From Escherichia coli (lineage in GTDB: Bacteria; Pseudomonadota; Gammaproteobacteria; Enterobacterales; Enterobacteriaceae): 3,174 nucleotides of DNA. Positions 1-3,174 of the stretch are shown one piece after another. Each line of letters starts with the position of its first letter. The first letter of the stretch is position 1. The position numbers and the translations under genes are program-made. The notes below the pieces were generated by a model, which did not search any database, was not told the origin of the DNA, and saw only the letters and a list, made by a program, of their open reading frames with translations. The stretch is taken from NCBI RefSeq assembly GCF_024298765.1, contig NZ_CP101217.1; one strand, given 5' to 3'.

Positions 1-164
1 CGACGCGCCCCGTGATCGATGGCCTTGGCTCCGTCCGGCATATCGAGAGCGGCAAACTACCCGTCCCTTCACTGGGAGGGGTGAGTTGTTGCCGTTCCCT
101 CCGACCTTCCACCATCCAGCATATCGCACGATCCCATGAGCACCGCAACAACTGATAACTCCAG

Positions 165-266
165 AGCAAAAAAAAAAAAAGGATCTGCATCATGTGAGAG
201 TGATCCCACCGCTCGCCGCAGCCCCAGCGACCGAACGTAGTGAGCGAGTGGGCGAGGAAGCGGAAG
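165..266 (+). other. ColE1/pMB1-like origin-proximal segment (A13 tract plus conserved downstream block)
   Basis: A13 homopolymer at 168-180. Block 208-266 ACCGCTCGCCGCAGCC...GTGAGCGAG...GCGAGGAAGCGGAAG closely resembles the pBR322/pUC segment ACCGCTCGCCGCAGCCGAACGACCGAGCGCAGCGAGTCAGTGAGCGAGGAAGCGGAAG (recalled), which lies just downstream of the ColE1-type replication origin on the RNAII-sense strand, in the region of the primosome assembly sites. Confidence 0.35.
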
Positions 267-379
267 TGAACCGGAAACCACATTGAGCACGTACGCACCT
301 ATGCCAGATCCGCGCGTAGCGCGTCGCGAAATCGAAAACATTGAACACCGGCAGGCAAACGCACCACCACGCAGCGGAA

Positions 380-775
380 TTAATGATGATCTGGGCTTGT
401 TTCAAGATCGAGCCTGATTGCCTTAAGTTTCTGTAATATATTGTCTTTTGGGTATCTCAGTTCGCCTGTTTTTGTGTCCACTAGTCCGGCCTCGATCAGT
501 AACCCCGCCGCAAGAAACAGGCGGTGATTGCGTTCCCGTCGTTGTGTTTTCCCCTCCATCCGTTTTTGGTTGGCCTGTTTGCGTGCGTTCTCCTGTGCCT
601 GTAGCTCGTTTTTTTCTGCGGTTGCCAGGACGTGGAGTAGTTTGCGCTCCTGTTCTGTTAGTCCGGCTTCGTTATCGAGCAGGTCAATGATCTGCCTCTG
701 TCGTGCGGTCTGTTCTCCGAGCTTCCTGATAAAGCCGATTCGTTTCTTCAACCAGTCGATGTTGCTGATGCGCAT
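380..775 (-). CDS. mobC: MobC-like relaxosome accessory protein (131 aa)
   Basis: Minus-strand ORF, ATG at 775-773, stop TAA (complement of 380-382). AGGGAG Shine-Dalgarno on the minus strand about 10 nt upstream of the ATG. Divergent from the relaxase gene across the oriT region, as in IncQ mobC-oriT-mobA. The motif KTQRRERNHRLFLAAGLLIEAGL resembles the RSF1010 MobC motif as recalled (ERKNETRRKVLVGAMILAKV). The six-frame track extends the ORF to a GTG at 895 (171 aa), which would run through the oriT palindrome; the ATG at 775 with its RBS is preferred. Confidence 0.7.
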   Translation of the reverse strand: MRISNIDWLKKRIGFIRKLGEQTARQRQIIDLLDNEAGLTEQERKLLHVLATAEKNELQAQENARKQANQKRMEGKTQRRERNHRLFLAAGLLIEAGLVDTKTGELRYPKDNILQKLKAIRLDLETSPDHH

Positions 776-850: not shown

Positions 851-882
851 GGGGGTATCTTCCGTGCTAATTCGTAAAATTA

Positions 883-940
883 GCAGGAAGCGCACTTATA
901 TGTTTCTTCGCCGTTGGCTCAGAAACATGTGCGCTCCTGC
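883..940. other. oriT: origin of transfer (oriT), MOBQ/RSF1010-like, with candidate nic sites
   Basis: Inner inverted repeat ATGTTTCT (900-907) / AGAAACAT (921-928), with GCC/GGC pairing inside the spacer; compare RSF1010 arms CCAGTTTCTC/GAGAAACCGG (recalled). Outer imperfect inverted repeat GCAGGAAGCGCAC (883-895) / GTGCGCTCCTGC (929-940). Minus strand reads AGAAACAT-ATAAGTGCG|CTTCC (plus coordinates 898-886), matching the RSF1010 nic core TAAGTGCG|CCCT 8 of 8. Plus strand reads AGAAACAT-GTGCG|CTCCTGC (929-940), a shorter match. An additional small hairpin TGCTAATT/AATTAGCA lies at 865-885. Confidence 0.7.
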
Positions 941-954
941 GGAGGGCTAACACC

Positions 955-1908
955 GTGGCAACCTATCACCTCAATGTAAAATTTGGCGGCAAGGGACAGG
1001 CCGGAAACCATGCCGATTACATCGAACGCAAAGGCGAGTACGAGAAACGAAAAGATCTGGAATACTCAGAGCACGGGAATATGCCAGGCTGGGCGCGAGA
1101 TAATCCCTCCCATTTCTGGCAAGCGGCTGATCAGTTTGAACGTGCGAATGGTTCGACTTATCGGGAGATCGAAATCGCCTTGCCGCGTGAACTGACACCG
1201 GATCAGCGCATTGAACTGGTGCAGGATTTTGTGCGTCAGGTAGCTGGAGAACGGCACGCCTATAGCTTTGCCATTCACAATCCAAAAGCGAGCATTGACG
1301 GAGGGGAACAGCCTCATGCGCATATCATGATGAGCCAGCGTATTAACGATGGTATGGAACGTTCGCCGGAACAGTATTTCCGGCGTTATAACGCCAAGAA
1401 TCCCGAACGGGGAGGCGCAAAAAAAGATTCAGGCAATCTGACACCGACTCAGCAAAAAGAGCAATTGCGGACGTTACGGGCGAGCTGGTCAGCGTTACAG
1501 AACGAGCATTTAGCGCGTCATGGTCACAGGGTGCGCGTTGACCATCGCTCACTGGAAGAACGCGGAATTAAACGCACGCCAGAACGGCATTTCGGATTTG
1601 CCGCCTCATCACGGCTTGATCATGCGCAGCGCCGCGAAATCCTGCAAAACCGAGCGCAGCCGCTCGAACATTTTCTAGAGAAAGCGCATTCGGTTCGCCA
1701 TCAATTTGATGCACAAGTTCAGCAAAAAGAGTTAGTTAAAACGCTTTTACAGGACGTCGCACGGGAGCGAGGGCACGCGCTTACGGCAAGAATAAATAAA
1801 ACAGGTGAAGTTGAATTTGAACGTGCGCCAACGCGGACGCGGAGTAACACGCGAGGGCACGGCATGGGCATTCGTGACAACTCACGCGGGTACGACTACG
1901 AACGTTAA
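955..1908 (+). CDS. mobA: MobA relaxase, MOBQ family (317 aa, relaxase domain only)
   Basis: GTG start at 955 preceded by GGAGGG (941-946, 8-nt spacer); stop TAA 1906-1908. N-terminus MATYHLNVKF...HADYIERKGEY parallels RSF1010 MobA MAIYHL...ADYIQREGKY (recalled). Conserved motifs: ADYI (candidate catalytic Tyr22), REIEIALP, the His cluster H108...PH121AH123IMMSQRIND (candidate metal-binding triad), RYNAKNPERGGAKK, and VDHRSLEERGIKR. Confidence 0.9.
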   Translation: MATYHLNVKFGGKGQAGNHADYIERKGEYEKRKDLEYSEHGNMPGWARDNPSHFWQAADQFERANGSTYREIEIALPRELTPDQRIELVQDFVRQVAGERHAYSFAIHNPKASIDGGEQPHAHIMMSQRINDGMERSPEQYFRRYNAKNPERGGAKKDSGNLTPTQQKEQLRTLRASWSALQNEHLARHGHRVRVDHRSLEERGIKRTPERHFGFAASSRLDHAQRREILQNRAQPLEHFLEKAHSVRHQFDAQVQQKELVKTLLQDVARERGHALTARINKTGEVEFERAPTRTRSNTRGHGMGIRDNSRGYDYER

Positions 1909-1919
1909 AAGGGGACTGT

Positions 1920-2450
1920 ATGGCGAGTACAGAAGAGGGGTTGCTCACGCTCTTGTTGTCCGTTGAGCATTTGAAAAACACTGCGATAGAACAACAGAAA
2001 GCGGTTGCAGACACGCTGGCGGTCGCAAGGGAAACACTGCGGGGGTATCGGGATATTTCTGACAGTGTTGTAAAACAGGTTAGCGATGAAGTCAGAAAAG
2101 GGGTACAGAAAACGGACATTGCGGGGCTGATGGGTGAGCGCATGACCCAGGATTTTCAGCGTCTTGAAGAGACTGTGGCAAAGATGAGAGCCAACGCGGA
2201 GGCGCTTAACAAGGACATTGCGACAATTCATCACAATGTTGTTAAAGAATACAACACGCTCAATAAATACAGTCTGAAATGGTTTATCGGTGTTACGGTC
2301 AGTTTTCTGGTCATGTTCTCGTTGCTTGGCTGGTTTACCAAAACGTTGATCGACAGGAACTACACCGCGACGGAGGTCGTGTATCAGAAAATTGTTGATA
2401 TTGAAAAGAAACTGGACAAACCAGCAACAGGGAAGAGCCGGAAAAACTGA
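1920..2450 (+). CDS. mobilization-associated membrane protein, possibly MobB-like (176 aa; coiled-coil N-terminus, single C-terminal TM helix)
   Basis: ATG at 1920 lies 11 nt after the mobA stop, with AGGGGA RBS-like sequence at 1908-1913 (GGGGA centred about 8 nt upstream), implying operon coupling. Residues ~1-118 are charged and heptad-like (E/K/Q/A-rich). Hydrophobic segment WFIGVTVSFLVMFSLLGWF (aa 121-139, nt 2280-2336) is followed by a short basic tail. The antisense 200-aa ORF (1905-2507) has junk-like composition. Functional assignment is by position and by analogy with the membrane-associated MobB of IncQ plasmids, not by recognised sequence identity. Confidence 0.7.
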   Translation: MASTEEGLLTLLLSVEHLKNTAIEQQKAVADTLAVARETLRGYRDISDSVVKQVSDEVRKGVQKTDIAGLMGERMTQDFQRLEETVAKMRANAEALNKDIATIHHNVVKEYNTLNKYSLKWFIGVTVSFLVMFSLLGWFTKTLIDRNYTATEVVYQKIVDIEKKLDKPATGKSRKN

Positions 2451-2475
2451 CGCGCTTCGCTTGTCCAACGCCTCA

Positions 2476-2502
2476 CGGGACGCGAAAAAATTCCGCGTCC
2501 CG
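2476..2502 (+). terminator. candidate hairpin terminator downstream of the mobA operon
   Basis: 9-bp GC-rich stem CGGGACGCG (2476-2484) / CGCGTCCCG (2494-2502) with a 9-nt A-rich loop, 26 nt after the ORF stop. The downstream T-tract is interrupted (TTCACCGTTTTCT), so intrinsic-terminator assignment is weak; it could instead be a structured single-strand site. Confidence 0.35.
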
Positions 2503-2703
2503 TTCACCGTTTTCTGATGAGAAAGTTTGCCGTTTTGACCCGTTCGGTGCTCAGATTTGGCGAAATTGATTCCGAATCACTTTTGTGAATAGTTATGCAA
2601 GCCCCTGGAAACGTTTCTGACGCGTTTTTTGAGGTAGGGGTGGGGGAAAGCATGGTTTTTTGATGTTTTGAGCGTAAAAGCGTGAAAAATCGCGTTATTG
2701 TGC

Positions 2704-2732
2704 TTGCGATCTTTCGTCAGGGAGCGTAGAAC
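2704..2732 (+). promoter_or_regulatory. candidate sigma70 promoter for a plus-strand primer-like transcript (RNAII analogue)
   Basis: TTGCGA (2704-2709), 17-nt spacer, TAGAAC (2727-2732). It sits immediately upstream of an A-run plus hairpin (2734-2757), similar to how the ColE1 RNAII 5' end overlaps the RNAI terminator. Hexamers are only 4 of 6 matches to consensus. Confidence 0.2.
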
Positions 2733-2733
2733 G

Positions 2734-2757
2734 AAAAAAGCCCGCCGTTAGGCGAGC
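2734..2757 (-). terminator. rho-independent terminator, minus strand
   Basis: Minus-strand RNA would read GCUCGCC-UAAC-GGCGGGC followed by UUUUUU. 7-bp stem with one G-U wobble, which is a C-A mismatch in the plus-strand transcript, so the structure is strand-specific. The U6 tract corresponds to plus A2734-2739. Confidence 0.5.
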
Positions 2758-2860
2758 TTCTTCGGGTTCATTGAGGTTTTCGACCTCCTCAATGTTCCTG
2801 TGGAGTCTGTTGCGGCGACAACGGAAACCAGTTCATTCAGTTTGCATGAACCTTCTGTAT
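2734..2860 (-). ncRNA. candidate antisense regulatory RNA (RNAI-like), boundaries approximate
   Basis: Upstream of the minus-strand terminator (on that strand) are two more hairpins: CATTGAGG/CCTCAATG (2769-2794, 8-bp stem) and GTTCAT/ATGAAC (2831-2851, 6-bp stem). Three stem-loops ending in a terminator within ~120 nt resembles ColE1-type RNAI architecture. No confident promoter found; the 5' end is not defined. Overlapping ORFs in this region look non-coding. Confidence 0.25.
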
Positions 2861-3174
2861 TCTTCAAGCATTACCGACCGCACAGCCTCCCCAGAATCCC
2901 GAAAAAATCCTGTTTTTGCAGATGATTGCGTGTTTGCAAAGACCGTTTGCGGTTGGGGGAGCTGTGACGACGGCAACCGCACGCGTGAGAGTTCCGCTAC
3001 CGGCGCAGAGAGTTTCATCGACAGCGGACACCTGATGAGTTGCCACAAAAACCGTATGTAGCGCGGCTAGATTGGTTGAGTTAGACCTTGGCGGCAGTTC
3101 CCGGTATGTGGTGGCGTGACGGGTGAGATGGTGCGGCGAAGACGCATACGTCACGCAGGCGCGGGTTCTTCCAC

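Follow-up and report, generated by a model that had tools for sequence, protein, structure and literature searches.

A complete 3174-bp mobilisable plasmid with a Rep-less, probably ColE1-like RNA-primed replicon that receives no replicon type

The window, i.e. the whole stretch of 3174 bp analysed here, is a complete circular plasmid, and it probably replicates in the manner of ColE1, by a theta, Rep-independent and RNA-primed mechanism with no plasmid initiator; we put the probability of this reading at about 0.8. The element is best described as an untyped variant of the ColE1 kind, in which the architecture matches and membership of the sequence family fails. An RNA-primed replicon independent of Rep had been proposed in an initial annotation of this DNA, and the proposal is now supported computationally by an RNA I architecture, a conserved structure of the sense strand, a block homologous to ColE1, the Rop protein of sibling plasmids and the existence of gene-free circles. 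In canonical ColE1 there is no plasmid initiator, RNA II starts ~550 bp upstream, and replication involves a persistent hybrid, RNase H and Pol I; RNA I is the complement of the RNA II 5′ end (PMC5043065).

Elements of the replicon module

The limits of the replicon were given by comparison with Col156-typed plasmids of 3885 bp. These have only positions 209-2629 in common with the window (98% identical) and a rep gene in place of the remainder, so that 2630-3174 plus 1-208 (753 bp) is a replicon-specific cassette, with its boundary to the Col156 plasmids at 208/209. As read from these sequences, the replicon module runs from about 2582/2630 to 208 and the ColE1-like block 208-317 comes next; 2451-2581 is part of the mobilisation backbone. 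The span 2451-3174 plus 1-379, which had been taken as the replicon, does hold it, but the functional unit is narrower by at least this backbone portion. The elements of the sense strand are as follows.

2704-2732, plus strand: putative RNA II-like promoter (-35 TTGCGA at 2704-2709, 17-nt spacer, -10 TAGAAC at 2727-2732)
2738-3174, plus strand: putative preprimer RNA, part 1, with conserved structure
1-180, plus strand: putative preprimer RNA, part 2, across the junction and up to the A13 run, with conserved structure (total ~610 nt)
2951-2959, plus strand: G-run 1, GGTTGGGGG, invariant in all lineages, ~215 nt into the preprimer
74-81, plus strand: G-run 2, GGGAGGGG, G-richness kept in all lineages, ~510 nt into the preprimer
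168-180 and 181-206, plus strand: A13 run and GGATC...GATCC hairpin, right edge of the module
208-317, plus strand: ColE1-homologous block with invariant core 208-266

The hexamers of the RNA II-like promoter and their 17-nt spacing are conserved across lineages, while the spacer sequence itself is divergent, and the preprimer would start at about 2738-2740. This promoter adjoins the terminator of the antisense RNA described below, which mirrors ColE1, where the RNA II start lies beside the RNA I 3′ end. The hexamers are weak as promoter elements, and the RNA II -10 lacks the final T. A generic scan for promoters and terminators found nothing above chance in 2451-3174 plus 1-379, and the promoter assignments are therefore made from conservation and position only. 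The scan missed the terminator of the RNA I-like transcript, probably through pairing of its U-run with an upstream A-run. Among the promoter-like, terminator and hairpin elements listed initially for this region, it is the hairpins that are found conserved, and the promoters and terminators did not rise above chance in that scan.

The sense span has a strongly conserved predicted RNA structure. For eight lineage representatives the plus-strand Alifold energy was -174.9 kcal/mol against -124.9 +/- 6.8 for a conservation-matched column-shuffle null (z = -7.35), with 21 compensatory pairs, more than the null gave on average (9.4) or at most (17); the minus-strand fold of the same span was weaker (z = -4.59). 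Sequence similarity between the preprimer body and ColE1 was not detectable by BLAST or nhmmer.

G-rich elements near the origin are found by presence alone, as the two G-runs. The G-rich tracts pointed out earlier near 2951-2959 and 74-81 proved invariant across lineages, and the one at 2633-2646 is not conserved and lies at a recombination boundary. The lineages carrying the G-runs and the A-run are otherwise 70-78% identical, and the counterpart of G-run 2 in the distant clade is GGGGTGGGGGGGG. The G6 runs of ColE1 stand ~289 nt and ~535 nt into RNA II, the second of them 12 nt before the A5 origin. By analogy G-run 2 is a candidate region for the persistent RNA-DNA hybrid, and G-run 1 presumably has the role in hybrid formation that we take such a run to have in ColE1.

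Every lineage has an A11-A14 run, and the hairpin after it is kept, in another register, by the distant clade. The A13 run with its hairpin (168-206) is a candidate for the switch point from RNA to DNA; read on the minus strand, it could be a terminator shielding the origin from mobC or rop transcription. The distance from G-run 2 to the A-run is 86 nt against 12 nt in ColE1, which makes the origin point uncertain, and there are two candidates for the switch: a site directly behind G-run 2, at about 85-110, from which the distance to the block at 208 would resemble that in ColE1, or the A13 run.

The block 208-317 gave the one significant match of an nhmmer search with the family profile against ColE1 (~208-317 to ColE1 1307-1403, E = 7e-15). 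On the RNA II-sense strand of ColE1 the matched part comes ~110-200 nt after the origin, and we take it to be what older work on pBR322 describes as the factor Y / PriA primosome assembly site (pas). Lineages with 70-78% identity elsewhere agree to 100% over the core 208-266, and the block is retained by the Rep-encoding Col156 plasmids too. By this homology, with the same orientation and order as in ColE1, a candidate downstream primosome region is present, and the block is probably where a primosome would assemble to make the lagging strand. The single-stranded DNA folding of the pas-like block was no different from shuffles, either for the window or for authentic ColE1. ColE1-like plasmids use the restart primosome (review).

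Over the 5′ end of the preprimer, an RNA I-like transcript is predicted on the opposite strand, with the following parts.

2733-2836, minus strand: RNA I-like antisense RNA of ~105 nt, a predicted transcript with a 5′ tail and three hairpins
2801-2830, minus strand: predicted stem-loop SL1
2769-2794, minus strand: predicted stem-loop SL2
2740-2757, minus strand: predicted stem-loop SL3, the terminator, with a U-run from A2734-2739
2839-2867, minus strand: putative RNA I promoter (-35 TTGAAG, 2867 to 2862; 17-nt spacer; -10 CAAACT, 2844 to 2839)

The minimum free energy fold has three hairpins (z = -3.25), and in dot-bracket form it nearly coincides with authentic ColE1 RNA I. The predicted fold thus presents an RNA in the range of ~100-110 nt with a single-stranded 5′ tail, three stem-loops and complementarity to the preprimer 5′ end. 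When pairing was scored on this explicit structure, and not on an RNAalifold consensus, 98.7% of cells were paired in 13 distinct variants, compared with 29-53% when the partners were slid. Covariation is modest, with double compensatory changes in two pairs of the terminator stem, and a score as high as the observed one came up in 9 of 500 shuffles. Loops I, II and III have entropies of 0.95, 0.34 and 0.71, and the stems 0.00-0.17; constant stems with hypervariable loops are the pattern expected of determinants of loop-loop recognition. The metagenome members had been collected with the 5′ arm of SL2 as search motif.

A scan of the whole window against Rfam gave nothing at E <= 1. In a restricted search, the RNAI family (RF00106) was the top family, with a full-length match on the correct strand; its E = 0.54 over 4227 Rfam families corresponds to ~1e-4 for a single family. 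The scores, 19.7 bits for the window and 24.2 for relatives, are below the gathering score of 47, so the RNA falls outside RF00106. In the reverse direction, a covariance model of the window family finds ColE1 RNA I (643-751, minus strand) at its exact place with 10.6 bits (E ~0.1), behind two terminator-like matches. The motif CTTGAAG upstream of the antisense RNA is invariant in all lineages, and ColE1 has in the equivalent place CTTGAAG, 17 nt and CTACAC.

Proposed mechanism and comparison with ColE1

For this plasmid we infer promoters, transcripts, hybrid formation, dependence on RNase H and Pol I, a DNA start point and pas function, and the order of events would be the following. Host RNA polymerase would begin the preprimer on the plus strand, at about 2738-2740, and transcribe ~600 nt across the window junction. 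The transcript may stay hybridised to its template at the G-rich 74-81, or further towards the A13 run 168-180, and the hybrid would then be processed, presumably by RNase H, and extended rightwards by DNA polymerase I. The displaced strand would expose the block 208-317, where the host primosome may load to make the lagging strand. Control of copy number and incompatibility would fall to the antisense RNA of ~105 nt (about 2836 to 2733, minus strand): pairing of its three loops with the preprimer 5′ end would prevent a primer from forming. In sibling plasmids Rop would stabilise the pairing of antisense RNA and preprimer; the window plasmid is without Rop.

Like ColE1, pMB1 and p15A, the window has no plasmid initiator and a predicted antisense RNA of ~105 nt with a 5′ tail and three hairpins, which overlaps a putative sense transcript of ~600 nt at its 5′ end. 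The -35 TTGAAG and the 17-nt spacing of the antisense promoter are identical, two G-runs stand in the putative preprimer, the elements follow in the same order and orientation, the post-origin block is homologous (E = 7e-15), and sibling plasmids have Rop and an Mbe-type mobilisation backbone in ColE1 order. Unlike these plasmids, the window has an RNA I and an RNA II that lie outside every family model tried. Compared with ColE1 itself, loop II of the window family has 10 nt, G-run 2 stands 86 nt before an A13 run and not 12 nt before an A5 run, the DnaA box is absent, Rop is absent and the relaxase is of the MOBQ type.

These differences bear on an alternative in which the origin is RNA-primed and Rep-less but works unlike ColE1, or has an independent origin, with only the pas block and the backbone borrowed from ColE1-type plasmids; the primer 3′ end might for example be fixed by the A13 run, with no part for RNase H, or some other hybrid-forming logic might be used. 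The absence of ColE1 sequence similarity at family thresholds in the RNA II body and RNA I would fit such an origin, as would the spacing of 86 against 12 nt between G-run 2 and the A-run, the invariant A11-14 run followed by a hairpin that has no counterpart in ColE1, and the mosaic and modular nature of the module family. What makes us regard it as unlikely is the point-by-point match to ColE1, which extends to the length, tail and three hairpins of the antisense RNA, its -35 with 17 nt, the antisense 3′ end abutting the sense start, the two G-runs and the order of elements, together with Rop kept beside the module in ColE1 gene order. Deep divergence from ColE1 is a simpler account of all this than an independent origin.

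Backbones, gene-free circles and the remaining alternatives

Outside the module, the window plasmid carries a mobilisation backbone.

380-775, minus strand: mobC-like gene (0 Pfam matches for the protein)
955-1908, plus strand: mobA, MobA/MobL relaxase (Pfam MobA_MobL, 128 bits)
1920-2450, plus strand: orf176, a hypothetical protein of 176 aa
2477-2501, plus strand: 8-bp hairpin directly after the orf176 stop codon, as read from the sequence

This is a MOBQ4 backbone, in which oriT lies between the MobA/MobL relaxase gene and a divergent mobC, as judged from Pfam and from the 98% identity to Col156 MOBQ plasmids over 209-2629; MOB-suite called window-type records mobilizable, with a MOBQ relaxase and no replicon type. 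The hairpin 2477-2501 is probably the terminator of the mob operon and would belong to the backbone and not to the replicon: 2451-2629 is common to Col156 plasmids and missing from MOBP-type plasmids with the same module, and changes in the 5′ arm of the hairpin are uncompensated in the distant clade. A near-palindrome at ~2585-2600 was considered as a Xer/cer site and rejected, its arms having no central spacer.

Mobilizable MOBQ4 plasmids comprise the pIGWZ12 group and the ColE9-J / Col156 group, and Rep_3 and ColE2 are the only replicons recognised on this backbone (PMC6856555). The window has the MobA/MobL relaxase, divergent mobC-like gene, intervening oriT and conserved hypothetical gene of these plasmids; unlike them it pairs the backbone with a Rep-less RNA-type module, a third combination, and a replicon of Rep_3 or ColE2 type is absent from it. 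The plasmid pIGWZ12 was rejected as a model of a Rep-less replicon, as it has a Rep_3 initiator with iterons. The ColE2-type Col156 plasmids resemble the window in being small enterobacterial plasmids that keep the block 208-317 downstream of the origin; their Rep primase gene and short, Rep-bound cognate origin are both absent from the window.

With the cassette alone as query, 178 PLSDB plasmids were found, all small and from six genera. It occurs in 142 of 5,426 complete E. coli genomes (2.6%), where 177 of its 178 places are on plasmids, mostly without an annotated feature beneath the match. Three different backbones carry it. The second of them is a family of 3373 bp (e.g. pSL476_3) that is ColE1-like and MOBP, 84% identical to ColE1 over the rop and mbe genes; its primer region is the window-type module and is not alignable to ColE1. 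These siblings encode a bona fide Rop (Pfam Rop, 127 bits) beside the module in ColE1 gene order, and Rop, an optional accessory in the ColE1 family, is absent from the window plasmid. The module family is mosaic and modular, and one module-bearing variant carries the SMR efflux gene sugE. A 1552-bp relative was compared with the Col(MG828) plasmid of 1552 bp and the identification was rejected, the match in size being coincidental. A scan of genome contigs gave one match, in a 519-bp contig (coverage 1.07) of an actinomycete assembly, which is probably contamination.

The module is also found on circles without genes. In the circular plasmid pF200-6 (1146 bp), ~1005 bp align to the non-coding region of the window and the rest is a ColE1 pas-to-bom segment, 87% identical to ColE1 1308-1521. 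Window ~2446-3174 plus 2-305 makes up most of circular contigs from metagenomes (1165, 1174 and 1176 bp) and of an E. coli record of 1166 bp, the sole other matching piece being a segment of ~80 bp homologous to window 869-948, in the oriT region. No conserved ORF exists on these gene-free circles, so host functions must replicate them. In being a gene-free origin with an oriT, pF200-6 resembles the ori-plus-bom vectors of pBR322 / pUC type; unlike the vectors, the gene-free circles are natural and recurrent, have a second version with a MOBQ4 oriT piece and use a divergent replicon. The mini-circles plainly need helpers for their transfer.

Such dependence lends some colour to the idea of a satellite replicon, whose initiator would be supplied in trans by a co-resident plasmid: the mini-circles rely on helpers for transfer, the hosts carry many plasmids, and the same mob backbone is known with a ColE2-type Rep. 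We consider this distinctly improbable. The rep gene and origin segment of Col156 are exactly what the window lacks, iterons and DnaA boxes are absent, and the module is spread over six genera, 142 complete E. coli genomes and three different backbones; a satellite would also leave the RNA I-like regulator, Rop and the conserved long structured transcript unexplained.

An initiator encoded inside the non-coding region itself is less probable still. The span 2451-3174 plus 1-379 was aligned to eight relatives of 75-98% identity, and all 8 of its 8 ORFs of at least 30 aa have frameshifting indels and/or in-frame stops in relatives; of 29 ORFs of at least 12 aa, none is intact across all relatives, and the indels of the span are mostly not multiples of three. 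The earlier statement that no Rep gene is present agrees with this, every ORF of the span being broken in relatives, and a conserved small protein gene was found neither in 2771-3154, for which the possibility had been raised, nor elsewhere in the span. An unrecognised small protein or peptide initiator in this 'non-coding' region could be suggested by the two 96-aa ORFs of the window, 2771-3061 (plus strand) and 2864-3154 (minus strand), and by the hypothetical ORFs that annotators occasionally call here; we judge it very improbable, since ORFs of at least 30 aa are all frameshifted or stopped in relatives, indels are rarely multiples of three, and no ORF of at least 12 aa is kept intact by all relatives. 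Neither an iteron array nor a DnaA box, one mismatch being allowed, was found in the span; ColE1 has a perfect DnaA box. With no conserved ORF, iterons or DnaA box, the window has none of the marks of an iteron or Rep-type theta replicon such as Rep_3 of pIGWZ12.

That the window might be a complete small plasmid had been put forward from the letters alone, and the records bear it out. The window has a full-length match to the circular 3174-bp record NZ_CP084293.1 (pLHC5-1-3k, Citrobacter werkmanii), which is rotated so that record base 2560 is window base 1 and differs by a single SNP at position 2816. Its difference from pTB508 is one A in the A-run 168-180, the extra A being in pTB508. About 25-26 near-full-length circular records of 3.1-3.2 kb come from independent projects on Citrobacter, Salmonella, Shigella, E. 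coli and Klebsiella; their start positions differ, and two of them contain the window junction 3174-to-1 internally. The contig is a closed circle and therefore has no continuation into flanking DNA that carries a rep gene. That the window is an assembly artefact or a piece of a larger replicon, as fusion or multimer records (one of 6548 bp; one record with 22 places) might suggest, is hardly credible given 26 near-full-length circles with differing start points from independent projects and genera, independent circular metagenome contigs, and 177 of 178 E. coli places on plasmids.

Replicon typing and meaning for enterobacterial plasmids

MOB-suite gave no replicon type to any of 13 family records (13/13), and ColE1 and Col156 records were typed. 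PlasmidFinder type ColpVC was considered for the module and rejected, as ColpVC is a 2-kb Rep-encoding plasmid. The census of ColE1 plasmids by Ares-Arroyo et al. used HMMs of the origin and RNAI plus PlasmidFinder on RefSeq to September 2019 and collected 1,035 plasmids. Nine pre-2019 family members, including pSL476_3, were checked against these 1,035 and none was there (0/9), and a ColE1 control was found. In the same census MOBQ makes up 1 of 352 relaxases on ColE1 plasmids, and its authors noted that distant variants could escape the profiles (Ares-Arroyo et al.). Within a limited range of literature, searched by plasmid name as well, no description of this replicon was found.

We would give somewhat less than even chances to a wider reading, in which the family is a distinct and uncatalogued clade of Rep-less RNA-primed replicons that shares only the architecture and the primosome block with ColE1. 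Its cassette of ~750 bp would move between unrelated MOBQ4 and MOBP/Mbe backbones, its antisense loops would have diversified so that lineages co-reside, and its genes would have been shed repeatedly to leave origin-plus-oriT circles of 1.15 kb with two types of oriT. If this is true, few of the mobilisable plasmids that replicate autonomously in enterobacteria would be smaller than the gene-free circles. Conceptually there is little surprise, because the replication mechanism is probably the well-known one of ColE1.

Replicon typing underlies plasmid epidemiology, and the module receives no replicon type, Rfam annotation or PGAP feature, so such plasmids are reported as untypable. A covariance model or a typing probe derived from the family would close this gap in typing. 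The natural variants of the antisense loops, some of them co-resident, are material for studying the escape from ColE1-type incompatibility, and the gene-free circles of origin and oriT are minimal natural models of plasmid hitch-hiking.

Gene-free mini-circles carrying the replicon

The untyped replicon was found in a set of very small circular plasmids without any genes, whose sole content is this replicon together with an oriT. These mini-plasmids are as follows.

pF200-6 (locus L004), 1146 bp, gene-free mini-plasmid
L026, 1176 bp, gene-free circle
L035, 1174 bp, gene-free circle
L036, 1165 bp, gene-free circle
NZ_CP132735.1, 1166 bp, gene-free mini-plasmid

The oriT part occurs in two versions, the first being the ColE1 pas-to-bom segment and the second a stretch of approximately 80 bp from the MOBQ4 oriT (window 869-948). 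The mini-circles present in PLSDB were scored as mobilizable by MOB-suite despite the absence of a relaxase.

Recombination and co-residence of the lineages

In the alignment of the modules, L035 was found to be a mosaic, its 5′ end resembling the lineage of L010 (another locus carrying the module) and its 3′ end that of L036, and this pattern of matches indicates recombination within the replicon family. The record NZ_CP032882.1 (6548 bp) has exactly the length of 3174 + 3374 bp and combines one plasmid of the window type with one of the 3373 type, the junction lying within the primer region that they share, with both variants of the putative antisense RNA present and their loops differing. 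Whether this record represents a cointegrate or a chimera of assembly, one strain harbours both lineages. The window departs from its two nearest records (pLHC5-1-3k and pTB508) only by a C/T SNP at window 2816, which falls in loop I of the antisense RNA, and by an A-run at 168-180 whose length is 13 versus 14.

A metagenome contig of 11,237 bp (L018) has the module at about 5950-6700 along with many ORFs, and may represent either a cointegrate or some larger plasmid. The search of E. coli genomes gave one chromosomal location, and also one genome with 22 module matches, which is probably a multimeric long-read assembly. The single match in the species-representative genome collection was NZ_POUA01000830.1, a tiny contig of 519 bp with a coverage of 1.07 in the assembly of the actinomycete Spongiactinospora, and it is probably contamination by an enterobacterial plasmid.

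Conserved repeats and palindrome

Two sequence elements were also observed in and around the module.

31-45 and 112-126, direct repeat CCRTCCRGCATATCG, copies 81 nt apart, within the 3′ portion of the putative preprimer
~2585-2600, near-palindrome GTGMATAGYYATKCA, with the putative RNA II promoter approximately 100 nt downstream

Each copy of the repeat is kept across lineages. The near-palindrome is likewise conserved, with a perfect version (TGCATAGCTATGCA) in the 3373-bp family, and is located at the left boundary of the region common to all backbones; its lack of a central spacer makes it unlike a Xer site.

Backbone proteins and cargo

The 131-aa mobC-like protein (window 380-775) gave zero Pfam matches. 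The 176-aa protein (1920-2450) is conserved in the MOBQ4 backbone, and its search gave no significant Pfam family, with sub-threshold matches to XhlA and TerS_C only. In NZ_CP048365.1 (3638 bp), where the replicon and mobA backbone are near-identical, the gene of this 176-aa protein (orf176) is replaced by sugE. sugE encodes an SMR transporter for the efflux of quaternary ammonium compounds, and thus the untyped replicon can carry a biocide-tolerance gene.
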